Shown: positions 700-52,040 of the stretch, one piece after another | Layout of the letters: each line of letters starts with the position of its first letter | Numbering within the stretch: position 1 is the stretch's first letter | DNA from: Octopus sinensis | Taxonomy: Eukaryota | Assembly: GCF_006345805.1 (NCBI RefSeq) | Contig: NC_043001.1 | Location: 40,920,001 to 40,984,000 of the forward strand | Reading direction: 5' to 3' | Length of the DNA: 64,000 nt | Position numbers and translations under genes: made by a program | The notes under the pieces: model-generated | What the model was told of the DNA's origin: nothing | Databases searched by the model: none | Seen by the model: the letters and a program-made list of their open reading frames with translations, nothing else

Positions 700-1865
700 T
701 ATGGTAAAATATGCATTAATCATTACATTCTAATGTTATTTTTTCTCCCTTTATAGATTACTTTTTACCATAATGGTTAAATTCATATCTATTTTACCCT
801 TTAAAAATGAGTTTAGATGAGACTCCCATCAGACACTGCATATTGTATGAATTCAAAAAGGGCTCTTTAGCAATGGAAACAGATAGTAGTATTTACTCTG
901 TCTACAGAAATGAAGCTTCAAGTGTTTAGCCAGTTTTGCTTGGGACATTTTTCTCTTGTAGATTTCTTTTGACCTGGATAACCAAGTTCTGTCAATATAG
1001 ATCTTTTGAAAACCATAGTTGAGGAAAATTCCCAGCAAACTACACAAGAATTAGTAAAACAATTGAAGTCACACTTTAATCATAAATCATCCTCATAAAC
1101 TAGGAAAAGTGTCTAAACTTGGTCAGTGAGGCCTTCATCATCTGACTTGTCCATTTAATCACTATGCTTATCACTGAAGAGTAGACTTGCTACTAAAGCT
1201 TCCCTAGGTAGAATCATCACAACTGATATTAAGTATGTTTTCTATAAGCATGTCTGATGAGATGAGACCAACAATGGTTAGCACTCAATGAAAAAGGAGA
1301 ATTTATCCCCAAACCAGGACAATACCCAAAAATATAATTATGCTCTGTGATTAGTGAGATATGAAGGATGTCATATACCATAAAGTATTAAGCCAAAATG
1401 AAAGTTGACGTGAAGAATTATTTTTGTCAATTGGAAGCATTATACAAAAATTAGTGGAAAAAGTGCTAGTCATAAAAGAGTGTTGCTATTTACATGATAA
1501 TGTAGGACCACATATTGCCCAAGTCATTTAGGAAAAGATTATGGCATTGAGTATGAAAGTGTTACCTCATCCTCCTTACACTCCTGCCTTTGATCCAACA
1601 ATCATCTTTTCAGGTCATAGCAAGATTATTTAGAGGGAAAATAGTTTATTAATGTTGAAGAGGTTAAAAATGATATTCAGTGTATCTATGCTTTGAAACC
1701 CAAGGAATTTTATACCTGAGAGATTAACAAGTTTCCAAATAGATGGGATTATGTTAAAAATAATGAAAGTAAATATTATCTCAATTAAATATATCAATTA
1801 AAACCATAAAAGTATTTGTTTCTTTCCCATTTTGAAATATGAATGGACTTTCTATCCACTCACTG
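700..1865 (+). mobile_element. Decayed mariner (Tc1/mariner DD34D) transposon
   Basis: Frameshifted remnants of mariner motifs: IRHC.LYEFKKG (~830), GQ*.PHHL like WVPHEL (~1121), LGRIITTDIKYVFY (~1205), LHDNVGPHIA (~1490), VLPHPPYTP like YSPDLAP (~1560). Element ends are approximate. Confidence 0.85.
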
Positions 1866-2084
1866 CACTTTTCATTACCTTAAGCATTGAAGAGCCACAA
1901 GAGCACATCATTTCCATTATCAATCTCTTTGCAACTTTTACAAATCATTCTACCCCTCTTCTACTAAGTGTGAGTACCCATGTAGCTCTTCTACAAGAAC
2001 CTGCAGTGCATCCCTCCCCAGCTGCCATTTTACATACTTTAACCCCTCATCCCCTAACATAAAGCAGAACCTCACTACCTTGAA

Positions 2085-2280
2085 CTTTGTAGTTTTGTGA
2101 GCTACTTCACAACTTCAGTAGTGCTGGCAGCATGGAAAAAGCACCCAGTACATACTATGCACTAAAAAGGGCATCCAAGTGATAGAATTTATACAAAACT
2201 CGTCTTTGAATCCATCAGATTCTATCAAACTTTCCAATCTATGCCAGCATGGAACTTGGAGATCAGATGGTAATGATGAT
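2085..2280 (+). mobile_element. Degraded RTE-type 3' tail fragment
   Basis: aaaaagcacccagtacatact...gggcatcc...ccaatctatgccagcatggaa...gatgat resembles 4380-4553. Confidence 0.55.
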
Positions 2281-2508
2281 TGCACACACACACATGCACA
2301 CAGGTATATATATGCATGTGTGTGTATGCAAGGTATAACAACATCTGAAAGTCTGGTCGATGCAGGTGAGCATCATCATCATCATTCAGCATCTGTTTTC
2401 CATGCTGGCATGGGTTTCATATATGTATATATACACACACATATCAATATATATATATATATACACACACATATCGATATGTATATATATATATATACAT
2501 ATATACAC

Positions 2509-4553
2509 AAAGGTAAAGGTGACACTTTAGATACAAATAATTACAGAGGTATCAAGTTGTTGAATTAGGTAATGAAGGCCATGGAGAGGATCATAGCCCA
2601 AATAATTAGGTAGAGAGTCAGTGTAGATGAGGTGCAGTTTGGTTTCGTGCCAGGGAAAAGCACCACTGAAGCTATATTTCTGGTAAGATAGCTGCAGGAG
2701 AAATACCTACCCAAAGACAAACCTCTGTACCTAGCTTTCATTGACGCAGAGAAAGCCTTTGACAGGGTCCCCCGATCCCTTATCTGGTGGTCAGTGAGAA
2801 AACTAGGGATAGATGAATAGTTAGTGAGAGCTGTGCAAGCCATGTACAGGGATGCCGTCAGTAAGATGAGGGTTGGCAACGAGTACAGTGAAGAATTCCA
2901 GGTAGAGGTAGGGGTCCACCAAGGTTCAGTCCACAGCCCCCTCCTATTTATCATAGTCCTTCAGGCAATAACAGAGGAATTCAAAACAGGATGCCCCTGG
3001 AAGCTCCTCTATGCGGATGACCTTGCTCTAATTGCTGAATCACTATCAGAACTAGAGGAGAAGTTTCGGGTGTGGAAACAAGGATTAGAATCAAAGGTCC
3101 TTAGAGTCAACTTGGCTAAAACCAAAGTCCTAATAAGTAGGAAGGCAGGCAAATCACAAATCCCTTCAGGTAGATGGCCCTGCTCGATCTGTAGAAAAGG
3201 CATAGATAGAAACTCTATAAGATGTACCCAGTGTAAGCTATGGACACATAAGAGGTGCAGCAATATCAAAGGAAGGCTAACTGGGAAGATAGTTTTTGTA
3301 TGTGGCAGATGCTCAGGAGCAATAAACACTGAAAATGTGCAGAGAACAACTTCTGCCACATTCCAAGGAGAAAAACTAGAAGTAGTTGATAGCTTCTGTT
3401 ACCTAGGTGACCAAGTCAGTAGTGGAGGTGGGGGCTCTGAAAGAATAAGAATAGCTTGGGCAAAGTTCAGAGAGCTCTTACCTCTGCTAGTGAAAAAGGG
3501 CCTCTCACTCAGATTAAAAGGTAGACTATATGACGCATGTGTACAAACAGCCATGCTACATGGCGGTGAAACATGGACCATGACTGATGAGGACATGTGT
3601 AAGCTCGCAGGGAACGAAGCCAGTATGCTCCACTGGATGAGTAATGCCAGTGTGCATACACGACAGAGTATAAATGCCTTGAGAGAAAAGTTGGACCTAA
3701 GAAGCATCAGATGTGGTGTGCAAGAGAGACGACTGCGCTGGTACGGTCATGTGGTGAGAATGAATGAGGATAGCTGTGTGTAAAAGTGTCACACCCTAGC
3801 AGTTGAGGAAACCTGTGGAAGAATTAGATCCAGAAAGACCTGGGATGATGTGGTGAAGCATGACCTTTGAGCCTTAGGCTTCACAGAGGCAATGACAAGT
3901 GACCAAGACCTTTGGAAATATGCTGTGCTTGAGAAGACCCAGCAAGTCGAGTGAGACCATTACCTGTGGCCTATGCCAGTAGTGTAACCAGCCCACTTAT
4001 GCGTACCTTTCCTACATTGGACACAAAACTCTACTTGTGAAGATCTGTTGAGGCAAGTGAAATAAAAATTGAAATCGAAATCAAATTCAATGACAACACT
4101 GCATGACTGGCATCCATGCCAGTAGAGCACTATGAGCACCATCTGAGCGTGATCGTTGCTAGGGCCGCTGACTGGCTCCCATGCCAATGATGTGTAAAAC
4201 ACACCATTCATGCATGATCATAACCAGCACCGCCTTACTGGCACGTAAAAAACAACATTTGAGCGAGGTCATTGCCAATGCCGTTGGAATGCCTCCTGTG
4301 CAGGTCACATGTAAAAACACCATTTGAGCATGGCTGTTGCCAGTACCACTGACTGGCCCTCATGCCAGTGGCACGTAAAAGCGCCCACTACACTCTCAGA
4401 GTGGTTGGTGTTAGGAAGGGCATCCAGCTGTAGAACCTCTGCTACATTAGATTAGAGACTGGTGCAGCCATCCGGCTTGCCACTCCTCAGTCAAACCATC
4501 CAACTCATGCCAGTATGGAAAGTGGACATTAAACGATGATGATGATGATGATG
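2509..4553 (+). mobile_element. 5'-truncated RTE-clade LINE: RT pseudogene 2509-~3954, 3' UTR, (GAT)n tail
   Basis: KGKGD..NYRGIKLL, QFGFVPGKSTT, FIDAEKAFDRVPR, GVHQGS..SPLLF, LLYADD, FCYLG and RRLRWYGHV motifs, interrupted by in-frame stops. Ends in ttaaacgatgatgat. Flanked by TA-rich microsatellite. Confidence 0.95.
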
Positions 4554-4652
4554 ATATATATATATCTCAATGTGTATATATATATATATTATATATCAAT
4601 GTATATATAAACATATATATCAATATATATATAACATATATATATATATATG

Positions 4653-4870
4653 TGAAGGTGCGTGGCTTAGTGGTTAGGGCATTTGGTTCATGATTGTAAG
4701 GTCGTGAATTCAATTCCCAGGGACACGTGTCCTTGAACAAAACACTTAATTTCACGTTGCTCCAGTCCACTCAGCTGGCTGTGGAGTGCTCAGCCACTTA
4801 ATTTCACGAGCAAGCTGTTATGCTGATCATATCAGCTGGGACCCTCGTCGTCGTAACTGACGGAGTGTGC
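4653..4870 (+). mobile_element. tRNA-derived SINE
   Basis: A box tggcttagtgg and B-box-like aattcaattcc, followed by gtgtccttgaacaaaacactt..ttgctccagtccactcagctg, a core shared with 8727. Confidence 0.75.
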
Positions 4871-4920
<50 letters not shown>

Positions 4921-5239
4921 GGTGGTGCCCCGCATGGCCGTGGCCTTCGGGATAAAACATTTTTAAGGATTTAAGGATATAATATATATATATATATCAA
5001 TGTATGTATATATTATATATATCAATGATATGTATATATATATATATAATCAATTTATATATATATATATCAATTTAATATATATATATCAATCTATTAT
5101 ATATATATCAATCTATATATATATACATATCAATCTATATATATACATATCAATCTATATATATACATATCAATGTATATATATATATCAATGTGTATAT
5201 ATATATATATATATGTGTATATATATATATATATTTTTT

Positions 5240-5460
5240 TTGTACTTGTTTCAGTCATTTCGACTGCGGCCATGCTGGAGCACCGCCTTTTAGAGTGGTG
5301 AAAGAGTACAGCAGGGATCACCACCATCCCCTGCCGGAGCCTCGTGGAGCTTTTAGGTGTTTTCGCTCAATAAACACATACAACGCCCGGTCTGGGAATC
5401 GAAACCGCGATCCTCCGACCGCAAGTCCGCTGCCCTAACCACTGGGCCATTGCGCCTCCA
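5240..5460 (-). mobile_element. tRNA-derived SINE (ggaggcgcaatggcccagtgg head) with CR1-type tail
   Basis: Head shared with 39413 and 61023. Tail ggcggtgctccagcatggccgcagtc..gactgaaacaag resembles the CR1 3' end at ~46605. Confidence 0.85.
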
Positions 5461-5524
5461 TATATATATATGATTGATTGATTGATTCCAGTTTCAGCTC
5501 ATGAGCTGTGGCATGCTGGGGCAT

Positions 5525-5734
5525 ATTATATATATATATATATATATATACTACATTGATATACATATATATATACATTATATATATATATATATATAAT
5601 ATACTACATTGACATACATATATATATATACATATATATTATATATATATGTATATATATATATATATATATACTACATTGATATATAATATATATATAT
5701 TATACAACATTGATAATACTATATATATACATAT

Positions 5735-5766
<32 letters not shown>

Positions 5767-6172
5767 CATTGATATACATATTATATAATATAATATATAT
5801 ATATACATTAATATATATATACTACATTGATATACATATATATATACATATAATATATATATATATATAATATTATATATATATATATATATATATACTA
5901 CATTGATATACAATATATATACATATATATATATACTACATTGATATACATATATATACATATATATATATACTACATTGATATACATATATATACTACA
6001 TTGATATACATATATACATATTATATATATATATACTACATTGATATACATATATATACAATATATATATATTACTACATTGATATACATATATATCTAT
6101 ATATATATATATATACTACATTGATATACATATATATACATATATATATATATATATACTACATTGATATAC

Positions 6173-6209
<37 letters not shown>

Positions 6210-6217
6210 ACATTGAT

Positions 6218-6256
<39 letters not shown>

Positions 6257-6318
6257 ACATTGATATACATATATATACATATATATATTATATATATATA
6301 GATACTACATTGATATAC

Positions 6319-6349
<31 letters not shown>

Positions 6350-6502
6350 CTACATTGATATACATATATATACATATCTATATATATATATATATACTAT
6401 ATATAATATATATATACTACATTGATATACATATATATATACATTATATATATATTATACATATTTATATTATATATACTACATTGATTACATATTATAT
6501 AC

Positions 6503-6548
<46 letters not shown>

Positions 6549-6714
6549 TATATACTACATGATATACATATATATACATATATATATATACTACATTGAT
6601 ATAATATATATACATATATATATATACTAACATGATATACATATATATACATATATTATACTACATTGATATACATATATATACATATATATATATATTA
6701 ACACAATGATATAC

Positions 6715-6762
<48 letters not shown>

Positions 6763-6821
6763 TACATTGATATACATATATATACATATATATATATTAT
6801 ATATATAATACATTGATATAC

Positions 6822-6854
<33 letters not shown>

Positions 6855-6987
6855 CTATATTGATATACATATATATCACATATATATATATATATATATT
6901 ATATATACTACATATATATACATATATATATATATATATTACTACATATATATACATATATAATATATATATATATATATATACTAC

Positions 6988-7018
<31 letters not shown>

Positions 7019-7076
7019 CTACATATATTACATATATATATATATATATACTACATTGATATACATATATATACAT

Positions 7077-7108
<32 letters not shown>
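5525..7108. repeat. TA-rich compound minisatellite with recurring ctacattgatatacat anchor
   Basis: Dozens of tactacattgatatacat units separated by (TA)n of variable length. Confidence 0.9.
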
Positions 7109-7109
<1 letters not shown>

Positions 7110-7332
7110 GGTGGCACATGGCCTAGTGGTCAGAGCAGCGGACTCACGGTCAAGGGATCGCTGGTTCAAATCTCAGACCGGTTGACGTGTGTGTTTATGA
7201 GCGAAACACATAAGCTCCATGCGGCTCCAACAGAAGGTAATGGAGAACTTCTGCTGACTCTTTCGCCACAACTTTCTCTCGCTCTTTCCTCCTGCATCTT
7301 GCAGTTCACCTGCGAAGGACCAGTGTCCCGTC
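7110..7332 (+). mobile_element. tRNA-derived SINE related to the 5240/39413/61023 family
   Basis: tggcctagtggtcagagcagcggact..ggttcaaatc head; body ctctttcgccacaactttctctc shared with ~39565 and ~61176. Confidence 0.8.
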
Positions 7333-7372
7333 AATATATAGCATAAATATATATATGTACATATATATATAG

Positions 7373-7429
<57 letters not shown>

Positions 7430-7743
7430 CAATGTATGTATATATGGATAATATCAATGTATGTATATATATGTATATATTCATGTATATATATATATAT
7501 GTATATATAATGTACATATATATATATGTATATATACATGTACATATATATATGTATATATACATGTATATATGGATATATATCAATGTATGTATATATA
7601 TATGTATATATATCAATGTATATATATATATGTATATATACATGTACATATATATATGTATATATACATGTATATATATCAATGTATGTATCTATCTATA
7701 TATATATATATATATATATATATTAATATATATATAATATGTG

Positions 7744-7775
<32 letters not shown>

Positions 7776-7849
7776 AATGTGTATTTATATACATCAATGT
7801 GTGTGTGTGTGTGTGTATCAAGACAGAAGACTGGTTAAGTTTGGTTTAT

Positions 7850-8215
7850 GTTTATGAATTTTCAATTGTTATGTAATGTTACGTATCTCTCATTCAAAAT
7901 AAAATATCTATATACAAACAGTTCATTAATGTGAGAATGCAGATGTGTTTCACTGGAATTTCAACATCAACAACAGGGTGTTTTAGTTCGAATGTATGTA
8001 TATGTGCAGATTTTTATGTTTTGTTTTATTTATGTTGCATATCTAGAGATACTCATATATACTTAAATTACAAACTTTTGGAAAGTTTTACAGAATTTTA
8101 CAGTTCCACTGATGGCTTGGGTCTGTAGTCTTCGAATCAGCTTTCTCGTTTCTGGTTTTGAGAAGCGTACCTTCTCAAGATTGGTATTTAATCAATGTGT
8201 TACATATTCCAGTGC
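7850..8215 (-). mobile_element. 3' fragment of an R4/Dong-like (REL endonuclease) non-LTR element
   Basis: Reverse complement aligns by eye to 15550-15930 (taccaatcttgagaa..gaagactacag..ggaactgtaaaa; accctgttgttgat.ttgaaattcca). Confidence 0.7.
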
Positions 8216-8245
8216 CCCACTAATTACATGTATGTATTATGGGTT

Positions 8246-8585
8246 CAGGTGTGGCTATGTGGTTAAGAAGCTTGCTTCCTAACCATGAGGTCTTGGATTC
8301 ATGTATATATATTTGTGTGCATATACTTGTGTATGTATATGATATGTATATGAAGCCACGTCTAGACATCACATGATGATTGTAAATGAGCATGATCATC
8401 ATACAAGCTAGGTTGTTCCTTTGGAGTCTTCTAGGAAAAACATATCTGGTCATGGGGAAATATTACCATTTTGGAAACAGATGAGGGTTAATGAGAAGTG
8501 GGCACCAGGTTTCTTCCAAACCCACCTCATCAAATTCTGCTTGAATCATTCAAGCATCAAAAGGTGGATGTTAAACGATGATTAT
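8246..8585 (+). mobile_element. OK-like tRNA-derived SINE with RTE-type tail
   Basis: gtggctatgtggttaagaagcttgcttcctaacca head; ends ggatgttaaacgatgat. Same layout as 22012-22493. Confidence 0.7.
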
Positions 8586-8726
8586 GCTATGTAAATATAT
8601 GTATGTTGACCCTAACACCTCATCAAGACTATTGTTTTATCGCTTTCCAGCTCTTAGCATTCTCTTGGACTCTAAAAGGTGAGTAATCAGGAAGCTCCCC
8701 TACAGCAAGAAAGCTGTCCTGCTCTG

Positions 8727-8965
8727 TGGAGGTGTGTGACTTACTGGTTAAGCTGTTGGACTCACAATCATAAGATTGTGGTTTCGATTCCTGGACCGGG
8801 CAACACGTTGTGCTCTTGAGCAAAACACTTCATTTTAAATTGGTCCAGTCCACTCAGCTGGCAAAAATGAGTAATCCTGCAACAGACCAGTGTCCCATCC
8901 AAGTAGGGAATTTATACACTACAGAAACCAGCCCTTGTGAGTCGGTGTGACTCGAGGAGGTAACT
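8727..8965 (+). mobile_element. tRNA-derived SINE
   Basis: B box ggtttcgattcc; core cttgagcaaaacactt...ccagtccactcagctg shared with 4653. Confidence 0.75.
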
Positions 8966-9039
8966 TTTTTTTTTACTTTTCTGCTCCTGCTCTGTTCTCT
9001 CACACTTTATCCCACTCTACTCCTCCTCTCCTACTATAA

Positions 9040-9246
9040 AGTTACATGGTGACCTTACAAGTGCTCGTGACATGAAAAAATACCCAGTACACACTCTAAA
9101 GCAGTTGGCATTGGGAAGGGCATTCAGCTGTAGGTACCATGCCAGAGAAAACACTGGAGCATAAAGTAGTCCTTGGACCCATCAGATCCTGTCAAACCAT
9201 CCAACCCATTCCAGCATGAAACAGGCATTAAATGACGATGATGATA
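9040..9246 (+). mobile_element. RTE-type 3' tail fragment
   Basis: ttggcattgggaagggcattcagctgtag...ccatccaacccattccagcatgaaa...ttaaatgacgatgatgat. Confidence 0.7.
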
Positions 9247-9308
9247 AACAATGGTGTCTTTTATCTTTTACTTTTTTATCTTCTCCCTCCATATTTTTAA
9301 GAGGTTGT

Positions 9309-9396
9309 GGGCCAACAGGTTTTGGGATCTGACGATACGCCATAAAGCTAAGCCCTTTATGGACGGGAAACCTAAGGTAATTCCATAAACCGGCCT
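9309..9396 (+). ncRNA. Type I hammerhead ribozyme motif with extended, bulged stem I
   Basis: GGGAU-CUGACGA (9329-35), stem II CCAUAAAG/CUUUAUGG, GAAA (9367-70), stem III ACC-UAA-GGU, cleavage triplet GUA (9377-79), then AUUCC. Stem I continues GGUUUU/AUAAACC and GGGCC/GGCCU around an AACA bulge. Confidence 0.75.
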
Positions 9397-9402
9397 TCCC
9401 CA

Positions 9403-9447
<45 letters not shown>

Positions 9448-9659
9448 TACACACACGTCTATGTATGTATACACATAAGTACACATATATATATATATAT
9501 ATACATAGATGTATATATGTGTAAACATATATGTATACACGCACAGATACATACACAGGTATACATATACAAATATACACATAGATATACAAACATTTAT
9601 ACTGATTTTGACAGAAGGAAACAAATTCATAGATATATACATAAATGTAGATACACTGA

Positions 9660-10283
9660 CACACATATACATCCGTAAAAGAGAGGGCGGGAAAGGGAGA
9701 GAAAGAGATCGGGGTGAGTCAAGGATTCGTCTCGAAGATTGTAATGCATAGCAAAGCTTCAATGAGCTCCTGTTATACATCCATAGCAACAGATCAATTC
9801 TCGGGTAATAGGTTGAAAAAGGTGGGGTTCAAAGGTAAGTCGATACAGTTGAGCAATGAAGCCATGCAGAGGTTGTTAGACCTTTATCTAGCTGCACGTT
9901 CGATTCTTGAACATACACAAAATACACCTAAACATTATTAGTTTAGCGATTTAATTTAACGGGAAAATCAACACATCCAGTTGGTGCACGAACTTATTCC
10001 CTATCGTTGTTCATATTAATGATTTACCGTCGTAATTAATATCTCTTTCTTGCATTGGTATGAAGCGAATGTTCTTTAGAGGGAGTGGGTGGAATGTAAT
10101 GACTAGGATATAGTGATATGGCTCCAACGAGGGATTGAACCGGAATCGTGGATGATGCTCGCCGGCAGCTTTCCTTCGGCGAATTGACTTTGTCTTTCCG
10201 GGTTCTATTACACGATTACGAGAAATAATTTACTAAAAATCTAAATAGAACTATGATACATATAAGCGCGTCGCATTGTGTGT

Positions 10284-26061: not shown

Positions 26062-26221
26062 CATCATCATCATCATCGTTTTACATCCGCTTTCCATGCT
26101 AGCATGGGTTGGATGGTTTAACTGGCTCTGGGAAGCCAGAAGGCTGCACCAGGCCCAGTCAGCCTTCTGGCTTCCCAGACCCAAGTTAAACCGTCCAACC
26201 CATGCTAGCATGGAAAGCGGA
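26062..26221. repeat. Fold-back made of two inverted RTE-tail fragments
   Basis: Arms 26086-26146 and 26160-26221 are near-perfect reverse complements with a 13-nt spacer. Confidence 0.9.
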
Positions 26222-43987: not shown

Positions 43988-44135
43988 ATGCCTGTGAGGT
44001 AAGAAGCCAGCTTCCCAACCACATGGTTCTGGGTTCAGTCTCACTGCATGGCACCTATGGCAAATGTTTTCTACTATAGCCTCAGGCTGACCAAAGCTTG
44101 GTTTGTAGATAGAAACTAAAAGAAGCCCATCATAT
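43988..44135 (+). mobile_element. OK-like SINE 5' part
   Basis: cttcccaaccacatggttctgggttcagtctcactgcatggcacc. Confidence 0.75.
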
Positions 44136-44154
44136 ATATATATATATACACACA

Positions 44155-44200
<46 letters not shown>

Positions 44201-44204
<4 letters not shown>

Positions 44205-46666
44205 TGGATCTCTGCTTCACAAATAATATGGATCTCATCCATAATGTGAAAGTGACGCCGACACTACTCTCGGATCACAACATGGTAGAGCTGACTATGT
44301 ACGGGCCAAAGGAAAGCATGGACATGCAGCCTACAAGAAACTCTCAGAATCTTTCCCGCTTGAACTTCCATAAGACAAACTGGAAACAAATTGAGAAAGA
44401 GATCCTCAAACAAAACTGGCCTGAATGTCTATCCTCGCCAGACATCGACATGAAACTTCAACAATTCATGTCTGTAATGCAAGCCATATGCTACAAGTAT
44501 GTCCCAGAGAGAAAGGCCACTGCACACAAGAGCAAAATCCCCAGAGAGAGGAAAATTCTAATGAGACAGCATACAAAAGTTTCAAATCGCCTAAACAAAC
44601 AAATTGAAAGCAGTGAAAAGTTCCGCCTGAAAATAAAACTGTTGGAAATTGAAAAATGTCTGCAACTCTCCCATGAAAAAGAAAGAGCAGACAAAGAAGC
44701 CTGGGCTATAGACAACATAAAATCTAACCCCAGAACTTTCTACAGGTATGCCAAAGAAACAGCTACGGTGCACTGTAGGATAGGGCCACTCCTTGAAAAG
44801 GATGGCACACTCACAGGAAATCCAATGAGGGTAAGTGAAATACTAAATGAGCAATTCAAGATTATTTTCACTCCACCCCTAGGGCATTTTCAAGTCAGCA
44901 ATCCAACTGACTTCTTTACCACTGCAGATATAAAATCAGAGGCATCGATGATTGATTACATCAATATAAAGGAAGACGATGTAATAAAGGCTATTGATGA
45001 AATGAAAACAAACTCAGCTACTGGCCCCGATGGATTCTCAGCAATCCTTCTAAAAGTATGTAAGAGAGTCCTAGCAAGACCACTGCAGTTCCTCTTTCAG
45101 AGCTTCCTTGCAACTGGCAAACTTCCAAGAAAACTGAAGGAAGGTAAAATATGCCCTATTCATAAAGGAGGTAGCAGAGCGGAGGCCAAGAACTACAGAC
45201 CTATCTCTCTGACCTCACACATCAGCAAGGTCATGGAACGAATAGTCAGAAGGAAACTAATCACCTTCCTTGAAGAAAATGACTTGCTGCCTGACACCCA
45301 ACATGGTTTCCGACCAGGAAGAAGCTGCTTAACTCAGCTCCTACCACACTATGACTGGGTGCTGAAACGACTGCTCAACCACTCAAATGTGGAAGTCATA
45401 TATCTCAACTTTGCAAAGGCCTTTGATAAAGTCGATCATGGAATGATATGTCACAAATTGCGTGATCTTGGCATAGTTGGAAAATTGGGAGAATGGCTTC
45501 ATGACTTTCTGAAGGATAGAAGTCAGGTGGTAGTAGCCAATGGGGCCACTTCCATTAACACGCAAATAGTGAGCGGTGTTCCGCAAGGCACTGTTTTGGG
45601 ACCACTACTGTTCATAATGGCCCTCTCAGACATGCCCTCAGCCACGCAGAGAGCCACGATCACAAGTTATGCAGATGATACAAAAGTTTCACAGGCAATA
45701 CAGAACCCTGAAGACACTAAGCACATGCAATGTGAGCTGGACAAAATATACAAGTGGGCTGAAAAGAATAGCATGCAGTTCAATGCTGAAAAGTTTCAAG
45801 CTTTATACTATCAGCATGCAAAACTAAATGCAATACCCAATAAATACACTGGACCTGGAAGGATTGCAATCCCAGAGGCACAATCAGTGCGAGACCTGGG
45901 TATTTACATGAGTGATGATGCAACCTTTCATGTGCATGTTGCTAAATTGGCAATGAAATGTAGGCGGCTGACCGGATGGATTCTTAGAACCTTTAGAACA
46001 AGAGACCAGGAAACCATGATGGTCCTCTGGAGGACATTTGTCCTAAGCCACTTTGACTATTGCTCTCAGCTATGGTCACCATCCAGTGTCAAGTTAATCA
46101 CAGAACTTGAGGCGATCCAACAAAGCTACACGAAGAAGATAACCTCTGTGCAGCATATAAGCTATTGGGAAAGACTCAAGAGATTGAGACTCTATTCCTT
46201 AAAGCATAGGCAAGAAAGATATGCCATAATATACATCTGGAAGATCCTAGAAGGACTTGTCCCAAACTTTGGCATCGAGAGTTACACAAATGCCAGAACT
46301 GGGCGCCACTGCATAGTGCCAAGGACTCCAAATTTGCCATCAAGATGTAGGACAAGATACTGTGATAGCCTGGGCTTCTGAGGTCCACAGCTCTTCAATA
46401 TCCTCCCGAAGAACCTAAGAGACCTGCATGGGGTGGATGCAGATGTCTTTAAAATGAAACTGGATTTCTTCTTGTCAGGTGTTCCAGATGAACCAACTTC
46501 ACGGCAGGAGGTGCAGATGAGGGCAGCTGCATCGAACTCTCTCATGCACCAGATGGCAATTGCTAAAAAGCATTTGTGAAGTAAAATCATGTAGCAACAC
46601 CAAATGGCGGTGCCCCAGCATGGCCACAGCTTGTGAGCTGAAACTAAATAAATAAATAAAAATAAA
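44201..46666 (+). mobile_element. 5'-truncated CR1-like LINE (end of APE domain + RT), ORF 44228-46381
   Basis: LDLCFTNN and SDH endonuclease end; ATGPDG, NYRPISLTS, QHGFRPGRSC, SGVPQGTVLGPLLF, YADD, RDLG. Premature TGA at 46379, with the reading frame continuing to 46579. (TAAA)n tail. Confidence 0.95.
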
Positions 46667-47024
46667 TATATATATGTATATATATTTATATATTATTAGA
46701 TAGTAGATAATAAAACAAATGGTTTATACCTGTTACTTTACTGGTAAAGCACAGTCACTTTCACAGTGTTCGTTATGTATCCGGTTAATGAGAGACAGAA
46801 GATGGAAGATATGAGAGTTTTTATTAATCACTACAATTGTTTCAACACATCTAGCATCGATCCTTCACAGATGGGATACTTAACAAATGGTTCAGGAGGA
46901 ACTGGTGGTGCAGATATAACTCTTTAAAATAACAGTTCCACAATGTATCCTCTCAGTTCTTGAGAAGAAAAGCAGCAAATTGAAGGATATAGCTTCATTT
47001 ATATAGAAGATCAATAATTTTTTT

Positions 47025-47250
47025 TTCTTTACTACTCACAAGGGGCTAAACACAGAGGGGACAAACAAGGGCAGACAAAGGGATTAAGTCGATTACATCG
47101 ACCCCAGTGTGTAACTGGTACTTAATTTATCGACCCCAAAAGGATGAAAGGCAAAGTCGACCTTGGCGGAATTTGAACTCGGAACGTAACGACAGACGAA
47201 ATACAGCTACGCATTTTGCCCGGCATGCTAACATTACTGCCAGCTCGCCA
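47025..47250 (-). mobile_element. Nin/Deu-like SINE
   Basis: Homologous to 14727 and 17205. Confidence 0.88.
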
Positions 47251-47657
47251 CCAACAGATGCAAAAAAAGAAACCAACGCAACACAGCTAAAAATGTATTA
47301 AATATAATCATTAATGAATATGGATGTATAAACACCTTCACGTAGCTTGTATGATACATGTACACTCGCTCATACAAACAGCCACAAAGATGTAAGCATG
47401 TGATTTGGTACACATACATTCTCATAGTGAGTTAAATAGCTACTTGGTGTTTATAAGAATGGGGAGCCAAATTTAATTCATCCCTACCTTATGGTGGATT
47501 ACGTTAATAGTTATTCAAAGGCATTCTCACTGCATTGTGCGAAAGTGCATTTATATGCATGTAAGCATCTTGAGAGTCTTTAAGAAATTCTATTAATGAT
47601 CTTTTCATTGGTCCACAGAATAGACAAGGATTCCTCAGAGCAGAGTTGTATCTGTTT

Positions 47658-47763
47658 ATCACCCAAAGAGACACATCTGCATTCTCGGATGCTTCTGAAC
47701 TAATTGTTAAGTATCCCACCCATGAGAAATCGATACTAGATGTGTTGAAACAATTGTAGTGAT
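47658..47763 (+). ncRNA. Hammerhead-fold motif with mutated core
   Basis: AUCAC-CCAAAGA-GACACAUCU...AGAUGUGUU-GAAA-CAAUUGU-A-GUGAU. All three stems pair, but the core differs from CUGANGA at two positions. Confidence 0.5.
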
Positions 47764-48070
47764 TAATGGAAAACTCTCATAATGTCCATCTTCCATTCTC
47801 ATTAACCATGTATGTGTGTGTGTGTGTGTGTGCACGTGTGCATGTGTGTGCATGCATGCGTGTGTGTGTATATATATATATATATAAAAGGAAAGTTTAC
47901 GAAAATAAACAAAGATGAAGGCAGGTGGTGTATTAGTATAGCGCTCAGGAATAGAAAAAGTCTTTTATATTTCAAGCCTACACTCTTCTACAGAAAGGTA
48001 CACAGAAAAAACAAAGAGAGAAACAAGGAGAGAAAAAAAATGTGTGTAGTAGCTAACGATCTATCATGGC

Positions 48071-48105
<35 letters not shown>

Positions 48106-48185
48106 TGTATGTATGTATGTATGTATGTATGTATATATGTATATATATATATATATATGTGTATGTATATATATATATATGTATG

Positions 48186-48246
<61 letters not shown>

Positions 48247-48419
48247 ATATATATATAATTAATAATATCAGGGTAATAAAGATTTTAGAAATTTTTACTA
48301 CAAGTGGCCTAGTGTATAGAAAAATTAGTCAATAGACTATATATTATTCATATAAAATACAGTGTACATTAAAACACATTAAGAGGCTTCCATCATAGGA
48401 ATCCTTTATGCTAGAAAGA

Positions 48420-48746
48420 ACAGTTAAAGTCCAAACCACTAATTAGGGATAAATTCTCAAAGGGAATGAAAAATAAAAACATTTACCATCTAATTCCTGA
48501 ACCATGGTTTCTGACCTATTTTAGTAAATAAAAATTATTATTCACCAGGCGAAGTCTTCATCAGCAGGGACGCCATAGATTAAATATATAAACAATGAGG
48601 CCAATCCAGCATGTGTCTCGTTGCTTATACATTTTAATTTTTTTCAAATTCACTGCGCAAGTGCATTAGTAATTAGATGGTAAATGTTTTTATTTTTCAT
48701 TCCCTTCGAGAATTTATCCCTAATTAGTGGTTTGGACTTTAACTGT
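48420..48746. repeat. 76-bp inverted repeat (one mismatch) enclosing a hammerhead motif
   Basis: Arms 48420-48495 and 48671-48746. Confidence 0.9.
48496..48568 (-). ncRNA. Type I hammerhead-like motif
   Basis: Reverse complement: CCUG-CUGAUGA-a-GACUU..AGGUC-a-GAAA-CCAUGGU-U-CAGG. Palindromic ACCAUGGU helix III. Confidence 0.6.
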
Positions 48747-48849
48747 AAAAATCTTTAGCCAACATCTTACAGGTTTTTAGAAATTGAAAATTAAACTAAA
48801 AAGAAACATAAAGTAATTTCCCTTGTAGATCACATGCCAAAGTAGCACC

Positions 48850-49574
48850 AAAATAACTTATTTACCTAAGTTTTAACATCATCTCTTTCAAAATAGTCAT
48901 CTTGTGCAGTGATACAATGGTCTCAGCATTCTTGCTATATTTGGAATCTGGCCTGGAAGTCATTTTCTGCAAGTGAGTCAAGATAAAGGTGCCACTTTGG
49001 CATGTGATCTACAATTTGCTTTGGATCTTGCCAACAGTGTTAAAAGAGTGACCTTTGGGATGCATTTTCACCTTGGGGAAGAGATGGAATCCTGCAGATG
49101 CTAAATGTGGTGAATAGGGAGGGTGCAGTAGTGATGTCATGTTTTTAGTGAAAAATTCATGAGAGGAGAGCTTGGTGATGCTCGTGGCAGGTCTTCCAGA
49201 TCACTTGTCATCTTCCAGGGACATTCTTCTACTTTTGACATGCTTGTGCCATTTAAACATCGCATACAACCCATTACCTTATCACTACAAGCTTGCTGAA
49301 GCATGCTCAATGTCTCTGTAGTAAACTTCCCAAGTTTATTGCAAAATTTCACGTTGGCTCTTTGCTCCAACTTCCTGTCCATGACAAAATCACAGACTAC
49401 AGTATACATATGATCATAAAAACACAAATTTCCCAACTTGCAAAATAAACAGTGATGTCTCTCAGTACACTGCCTCATGAAGACCACTGCTAGCTGTCAC
49501 TGTGCACACAACCACATGCTGCCATCTATTGGTGCAGTACAGAGCTAAACTGGGAACTTTTTAATACCACCTCA
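48850..49574 (-). mobile_element. Internally deleted mariner remnant
   Basis: LEQRANVKFCNKLGKFTTETLSML N-terminus; C-terminus CITAQDDYFERD; terminus aaaaagttcc/ccacctcata. Confidence 0.85.
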
Positions 49575-50245: not shown

Positions 50246-50374
50246 TATTATATAGATGGCATTACTATACATAAATGCCACACACTAGGAGGGACTCTTA
50301 AAGTCAAAACTACCGACTTTAAGAGTCCCTCCTAGCGGGTGGCATTTATGTATAGTAATGCCCTCTATATAATA
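50246..50374. repeat. Near-perfect 60-bp-arm palindrome with 9-nt loop
   Basis: Arms 50246-50305 and 50315-50374 with three mismatches. Confidence 0.92.
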
Positions 50375-51139: not shown

Positions 51140-52040
51140 ATAGCTCAACAAATATTACATGGTATAATGCTCCATTTTCATTTTCAATAGCTTCTAATAT
51201 CCCTCATAAATTCTTTGCAGCACTAGATTGGTATTTCCTACCTACAAGTAAATATGGAAAATCATTTAAAAGACACAGTGTTAAGTTTTTGTATTCAATC
51301 ACTTAGAAATTTAGCCAAGATTATTGCAGTACAAAATAAACAGAGAATTAGAAAATAGCACAATTCTAAATCTATAAATAATTATAGAACTGATAATATG
51401 TATAGTGAAATTAATGTTATTGATAATCATTCGGAACAAGGTTTAGATTCTATAATTTATCAAAATGCTGATAATATAGTGAGACTTTTACCTTGTACTA
51501 ATATTAATTCTAATAATAATAGTTATTATAATCCAACATTAACACCTATTTTACAGATGGGTGCTAGTGGATATTCTTATAACTATGAGGGCAATTTACA
51601 AGTGGACTTAATCCATGTGTAACTGTATAAACAAAACTTAATGTCCTTTAGGTAATCAGTATTTAAAGAAAAATATATTGTATCAGTCTGAAGTAATAAC
51701 TAGATATCTTAAGTATTGGTACATTGATTCTTCTGCTACTAATTGGAAATCTAGATTTTATAATCATTCTAATTGCTTTAAATATAGAAGAAAATGTAAT
51801 TCTACTAACCATAGTAAAAACATTTGGAATTTAAAGGATAAGAATATTAAATATGATTTAAAGTGGTCCTTTATTACTTATGCACCATCGTATAATATTG
51901 GAAATTCTACTTGTGATCTTTGCCTTGAAGAATTATATTTTATAATTACTTATAAATCAATTTTATTGAATTTTAATGGGCAATTAACTTTAAGACATTG
52001 CCATAAATTTAGAAAGACATTCAAATATTTCAATTATTAA
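51140..52040 (+). mobile_element. Penelope-like element C-terminus (linker + GIY-YIG endonuclease), decayed
   Basis: ITWYNAPFS..NIPHKFF..YFLP (like WFNPPFS..HFP); YQ..V..WYID..WKSRFYNH..F..ST..SK.IW.LKD..CDLCLEE. Confidence 0.88.

Follow-up and report, generated by a model that had tools for sequence, protein, structure and literature searches.

A 5′-truncated hammerhead-bearing repeat, likely of Penelope-like type, joined head to head to an inverted copy of its own interior in Octopus sinensis

The locus lies within a 64,000-nt window of the Octopus sinensis genome (contig NC_043001.1, positions 40,920,001 to 40,984,000), and all coordinates below are positions in that window. An inverted-repeat search identified two 76-bp arms at 48420-48495 and 48671-48746, separated by a 175-nt spacer and differing at a single position (48459/48707), as an earlier note on this DNA had reported. 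The chance expectation for an inverted repeat of this length with one mismatch is ~3e-32 at local composition, and it is the longest of the 7 short-range inverted repeats recovered in the 64-kb window with exact 20-mer seeds. The arms differ as CG versus CA, a CpG-type change that, to judge from the letters, is typical of later mutation. To the left, a (TATG)n/(TA)n microsatellite occupies 48073-48257. To the right, the second arm is followed at 48747-48822 by the interior of another repeat.

The left arm is contacted by a hammerhead motif. A descriptor search returned one type I match in the window, on the minus strand at 48496-48568, as compared with 1 match in total in 30 locally shuffled windows; its end at 48496 is the first base inside the left arm, in agreement with the earlier description. 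The CUGANGA and GAAA boxes, three helices and an NUH triplet are all present. Helix I (48565-48568/48496-48499) pairs CCUG with CAGG, the core (48558-48564) reads CUGAUGA, an A.A pair of unpaired bases is found, and helix II (48552-48556/48513-48517) pairs GACUU with AGGUC and is continued, according to the descriptor and to folding, by a 10-bp AU-rich extension (48538-48547/48522-48531), followed by the GAAA box at 48508-48511. This copy carries the triplet GUU and an extra A at 48512, between helix II and the GAAA box; the best-supported family variants listed include none at this place, and mismatched bases at the foot of helix II have been described before (PMC7229834). Cleavage is predicted between 48500 and 48499, 4 nt from the left arm. 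No Rfam model reached its gathering score in the window, the 4 weak matches obtained at E≤10 include no hammerhead family, and the hammerhead strand folds no better than shuffled sequences (z -0.56).

Helix III (48501-48508, minus strand) is the palindrome ACCAUGGU, as had been noted previously. Folding assigns -11.2 kcal/mol to its 8-bp self-duplex between two molecules, which makes the intermolecular pairing favourable, while the pair probabilities in the monomer are ~0.15 for helix I and ~0.01 for helix III. The model thus predicts that helix III can form only as a dimer.

Copies at other loci were recovered by aligning contigs of 4 public runs, taken from 24, to 48262-48990 at 80% likeness. 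Part of the stretch is present in 20 of the 24 runs, with a best share of 0.53 of sampled words. Between 4,084 and 5,241 contigs per run aligned, including those from the repeats right of 48747, and 142-160 contigs per run extend past an end of the aligned stretch; in 3 of the 4 runs the bin at its right end is empty. Summed depth over the arms reaches 10,000-280,000, as compared with 6-77 for single long pieces; although summed contig depth is not a copy number and each table lists its best-supported rows, this difference indicates an abundant family, probably of thousands of copies.

On a single strand, 48264-48660 is spanned by pieces of other copies that overlap one another (for example 48264-48407, 48308-48488, 48355-48514, 48420-48653 and 48475-48660). 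The hammerhead, the left arm and the next ~160 bases, as far as the (TA)n tract, thus form a single uninterrupted native copy of the repeat, which we refer to as the main copy (48258-48660, minus strand). The earlier note had treated the contact between hammerhead and left arm as an inversion breakpoint. Pieces from other loci cross both borders of the left arm, so the contact is native and no breakpoint lies there; the left arm is the interior of the main copy. Family contigs align down to 48264, which places the element's 3′ end at the (TATG)n/(TA)n tract, likely the insertion target.

Toward the 5′ end of the element, depth falls ~30- to 40-fold from 48493 to 48620 in all four runs, as expected of 5′ truncation in a minus-strand retroelement, although the variable helix II region also loses alignments. 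A further drop of 2.5- to 4.7-fold occurs between 48575 and 48596, just upstream of the hammerhead. Three long contigs cease matching at 48660, and one contig of 703 nt runs ~516 letters beyond that point, with no second long piece among those listed.

Within the main copy, motif reading predicts a 76-nt spliceosomal intron at 48411-48486 (minus strand), with a GTAAAT donor, a TTTAAC element, a pyrimidine tract and a TAG acceptor; the pseudo-LTR of D. virilis Penelope contains a 75-bp intron (PMC8557442). As a separate observation, the family majority has a possible splice acceptor at 48569-48580 (minus strand), 5 nt before helix I, and this copy differs from 70-89% of family depth at three positions there (48575, 48572 and 48569). 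In D. virilis Penelope, too, an intron ends at helix I (PMC4209133).

The hammerhead is preserved in the family. A GUC triplet is present in 94-97% of family depth (position 48500), where this copy has GUU, and 90-96% of family depth has a Watson-Crick pair in helix II at 48516, so that the family majority has a fully paired 5-bp helix II. Core position 7, which the hammerhead permits to vary, does so in 43-54% of family depth. In the copy studied here, three minority letters upstream of helix I favour another fold in folding predictions and, with the GUU triplet, would probably have weakened its hammerhead. At core position 3 (48564), 35-50% of family depth has U in place of C; a Schistosoma hammerhead variant with a U3-A8 pair has been described (PMC4209133).

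The right arm is the only inverted piece at the locus. It is an inverted copy of element positions 48495-48420, on the plus strand at 48671-48746 and truncated at both ends: its first base lies 4 nt to the 3′ side of the predicted cut, and it ends in mid-element, ~160 nt short of the 3′ end of the main copy. The family continues past this outer end as in the left flank, with loose ends behind 48724. The true junctions of the locus are at 48661-48671 and 48746|48747. The inner one is a zone (48661-48670) with short hairpins (48651-48663 and 48664-48672) and an ATTAG duplication, and the outer one joins the right arm to a repeat with a depth of 1,000-10,000, possibly through an imperfect 8-nt microhomology. 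This microhomology is based on 7 contigs of one run that carry other sequence before 48747, with a consensus agreement of only 0.53. Among the best 8 pieces listed per run in four runs, no contig bridged 48670|48671 or 48746|48747. A test for snap-back microhomology at the inner junction was negative: for the last 6-12 bases before it, 55-106 of ~350 other sites offer pairing at least as good as the observed site. The spacer DNA likewise shows no excess of structure over shuffled sequences (z -0.57). Neither a target-site duplication nor a right-hand (TA)n was found at the locus; the right side looks truncated, and the original end may be lost.

Both arms share minority letters at 48424 and 48493, positions at which 79-85% and 71-82% of family depth differ, respectively. 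The shared letters point to one template, or to near-identical siblings. Since the same letters occur in 15-29% of family depth, they fit a subfamily, and the inversion could be as old as the insertion itself.

Head-to-head joints recur in the family. The best 27 of 130 joint rows were considered (15 of 93 in one table and 12 of 37 in the other, with partial overlap), and after exclusion of 9 of the 15 and 3 of the 12 (plain skips, go-backs and an opposite-strand row that represents a deletion) and of one duplicate, at least 14 distinct head-to-head joints at other loci were counted. Their 28 ends spread over 48340-48522. Many of these joints have sides shorter than 30 nt, called at 80% likeness, and the sample is biased, because a joint can be seen only when one of its sides begins within the arm.

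The ends were plotted against the predicted cleavage site, as the earlier note had proposed, and two groups were seen. Four of the 28 (48495, 48496, 48497 and 48499) fall within 4 nt of the cut on its 3′ side, where 1.55 are expected (P 0.072), two of them being bounded by the arm end and one having been reassigned by hand from 48492 to 48497 on the basis of five "between" letters that match the family majority. A larger group, with 9 ends where 1.86 are expected, lies at 48476-48481, where a T-run of the predicted intron begins, ~20 nt downstream of the cut (scan-corrected P ~0.01 or lower, for at least 8 ends in any 6-nt window). In several T-run joints the sides measure 21-25 nt and lie in DNA of low complexity; the cluster may be a real priming hot spot or an alignment effect. 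At a further locus, seen in 3 of the 4 runs, a joint leads from 48361 to exactly 48420, where the arm has its outer end. This joint may reflect a deletion that arose by chance, or may hint at a second 3′ end 80 nt past the cut, as in PAc (Poseidon of Anolis carolinensis).

We next consider the class of element. The shape of the hammerhead, the predicted 76-nt intron, the 5′ fall in depth and the at least 14 other head-to-head joints argue that the family is likely a Penelope-like element (PLE), represented here by a 5′-truncated pseudo-LTR with an inverted truncated copy. This is the class that the earlier note had named, and it is supported by the hammerhead traits, the recurrent joints and a helix III predicted to form only in dimers; no reverse transcriptase or GIY-YIG reading frame is linked to the repeat, and six-frame translation of the copy gave short frames only. 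Pattern scans for the repeat gave 0 matches in metagenome contigs, viral contigs and prokaryote genomes. In an octopus genome 190 Penelope-like families have been described over 6.83% of the sequence (PMC13282606), which makes a hammerhead family of this kind unsurprising. A repeat library may already contain the family; the motif was not found in one supplementary file of PMC8557442 or in the supplement of PMC13282606, as far as these sources are accessible.

The traits of the locus can be set beside those of EN+ PLEs (Penelope/Poseidon, Neptune, Nematis and Hydra), as described in PMC8557442 and PMC3846280. Common to both are a head-to-head inverted copy, strong 5′ truncation, a hammerhead and a predicted short intron in the terminal repeat, and an AT-rich or (TA)n target. 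An inverted 5′-truncated copy beside the pseudo-LTR is common or typical in PLEs (PMC8557442), and head-to-head junctions have been described, with self-priming as a proposed origin (PMC3846280). Inverted copies combined with frequent 5′ truncation are seen here at the locus, in the at least 14 other joints and in the depth gradient. In contrast to the published elements, the octopus insertion has no ORF and no target-site duplication, and its inverted copy ends ~160 nt short of the main 3′ end, whereas the published "tail" measures 30-40 nt. Such a 30-40 bp tail and a target-site duplication are described as optional in PLEs or hard to see at microsatellites (PMC8557442 and PMC3846280).

The hammerhead itself is of PLE type when compared with those of D. 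virilis Penelope, rotifer, shrimp and mosquito in PMC4209133: it is of type I, with a 4-bp helix I, a long helix II, an extra base 5′ of helix II, a G10.1-C11.1 pair and a palindromic helix III that requires a dimer. It differs from them in the extra A between C11.1 and GAAA, in an unusually long AU-rich helix II extension and in the GUU triplet. PLE hammerheads can occur in pairs 100-700 bp apart on opposite strands (PMC4209133), but no second hammerhead lies nearby here.

It is reasonably probable, in our judgement, that the locus is a 5′-truncated PLE-type pseudo-LTR copy that meets a 76-bp inverted piece of its own interior head to head. A template switch in the course of the insertion itself would be the likely origin of the join, with the hammerhead probably a passenger. 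The element's endonuclease would have nicked the (TA)n tract, and reverse transcription would have proceeded for ~400 nt along an unspliced, uncut RNA, crossing the predicted intron and the hammerhead and halting near 48660-48670. Close to the 3′ edge of helix I, the new strand may then have taken its own cDNA, or a sibling RNA, as a new template, so that at least 76 bases were copied back. The copied end could have joined the neighbouring repeat by microhomology, or a longer arm could have been shortened later by deletion; either a later trimming of this kind or repair-type copying would fit the end of the right arm at element position 48420. The CpG-type change in the left arm and decay of the triplet from GUC to GUU would have followed. 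The template-switch step is suggested by the family pattern and the literature, not by this particular junction.

We doubt, as an alternative, that the ribozyme fixed the 5′ end of inverted copies, either because the inverted copy was reverse transcribed from hammerhead-cut RNA, following dimer cleavage, or because reverse transcriptase stalled at the 3′ edge of helix I. The earlier note had proposed in this vein that the inversion point may record RNA ends defined by the ribozyme. The start of the inverted copy at 48495 would agree with this, as would the excess of joint ends near the cut, one of which falls at exactly 48499 and which include 2 of the 3 joints with sides of at least 40 nt. 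Most of the family depth is lost within the 3′ half of the motif (16-36% is left at 48516), and the retention of GUC and helix II in the family suggests selection on cleavage. However, the inverted copy does not contain CAGG, the four bases that follow the cut and with which a cut RNA would start, and the main copy passes uncut through the hammerhead. At 48500, immediately 5′ of the cut, depth is still 53-83% of that at 48493, 7 nt downstream, and the larger fall has occurred by 48516. The excess near the cut is weak, two of its four ends being limited by the arm end and one moved by hand, and the T-run holds the stronger cluster.

PAc also speaks against this alternative. Its ribozyme mutants inserted normally in vitro, the RNA used as substrate was mainly uncut, and the RNA-seq data contained no reads with an end at the cut (PMC11167929). 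PAc and the octopus repeat have in common a hammerhead shortly upstream of the element's 3′ end, and the start of reverse transcription in PAc, 85-92 nt past the cut, can be compared with the end of the octopus inverted arm 80 nt past the cut (PMC11167929). They differ in that the octopus main copy ends ~240 nt past the cut, and in that no ORF starts in its motif.

About equally doubtful is an origin by host repair after insertion, in which a break near 48670 was healed by a templated inverted insertion of 76 nt from the resident element, with microhomology rejoining and loss of flanking sequence. Polymerase-theta-type fold-back can generate short templated inverted insertions during break repair. 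A right arm truncated at both ends, a right flank that begins in mid-repeat, the imperfect 8-nt microhomology at the outer junction and the minority letters common to both arms are all consistent with such an event. On the other hand, the recurrence of head-to-head joints in the family points to the element's own mechanism, a subfamily template explains the shared letters without late copying, and the consensus behind the microhomology is poorly agreed.

We consider it improbable that the repeat belongs to the non-coding tandem retrozymes or is a SINE-like monomer, or that the 327-bp fold-back represents a MITE whose terminal repeats are the 76-bp arms. The retrozymes of molluscs carry type I hammerheads and measure 350-390 bp (PMC7229834), which is close to the ~400 bp found here, and no ORF is linked to the octopus repeat. 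Metazoan non-LTR retrozymes share with it a type I hammerhead and an AT-rich repeat of a few hundred bases, and they are thought to derive from PLE pseudo-LTRs (PMC7229834 and bioRxiv 10.64898/2026.07.22.740005). The octopus repeat differs from them in that it is not tandem and has inverted junctions and a 5′ gradient: the window contains a single motif and no tandem copy, no 5′-to-3′ tandem joint was present among the best 27 of 130 rows, and depth is steeply uneven, not flat. The 703-nt contig that continues past 48660 is also at odds with a short monomer, although no second long piece was among those listed. A MITE was rejected because the family continues past 48420, the outer end of the left arm, and no target-site duplication was found, so the arms are not terminal repeats. 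Finally, it is most improbable that the inverted repeat is a fold-back chimera of the assembly. In favour of a chimera are the absence of a listed contig that bridges either junction and the share of 53% of sampled words in the best run. Against it, the absence was judged on the best 8 pieces listed per run, the arms have a CpG-type difference, a 175-nt spacer and distinct outer flanks, and similar joints occur at other loci in several runs.

The locus is a real but ordinary element remnant. Pseudo-LTR hammerheads and head-to-head inverted copies are already standard for PLEs, and a single locus therefore matters little, although the family may be of greater weight. The role of PLE hammerheads has been called unclear (PMC8557442). 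We think it unlikely that the hammerhead sets the starts of copies in this family, so that inverted or truncated copies pile up at 48495-48499 as a genomic record of the PLE ribozyme cutting, or blocking reverse transcriptase, in living cells. If it did, the likely thousands of copies and the many head-to-head joints would make the family a test bed for what these ribozymes do. Since the family is high in copy number, retains GUC and helix II and leaves many inversion junctions, the genome alone can be asked whether cut RNA ever serves as a template. A literature search covering few subscription papers found no mapping of PLE breakpoints against the cut, and nothing on cephalopod hammerheads beyond PMC8557442.

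The window is otherwise AT-rich, animal-type DNA with many microsatellites and LINE remnants. A 132-aa frame at 51642-52040 (plus strand) has no Pfam match, and its features lie close to GIY-YIG clusters (0.95). We take its CDLCLEE motif and HCH end to be those of PLE endonucleases, and the frame is likely a decayed piece of another Penelope-like element. It was rejected as the ORF of the hammerhead family: its best local alignment with the repeat scored 46, a value that microsatellite regions also reached, and downstream of the frame a hammerhead core flanked by helices was looked for and not found. LINE-type reverse transcriptase frames are present at 44120-46381 and 2821-3783 (both plus strand), the latter with a PHD finger after the reverse transcriptase piece. 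Next to the locus, a 27-bp inverted repeat pair lies at 48823-48849/48988-49014, in a segment (48823-49014) that we presume to be mariner-like, and loose ends before 48850 in more than 200 contigs per run mark a repeat border. Further inverted repeats were found at 26086-26221 (28 bp) and 46823-47767 (32 bp). A near-perfect hairpin at 50258-50362, with 48-bp arms and a 9-nt loop, lies between two (TA)n tracts; it may represent a small fold-back element, or else a further insertion of the head-to-head type.
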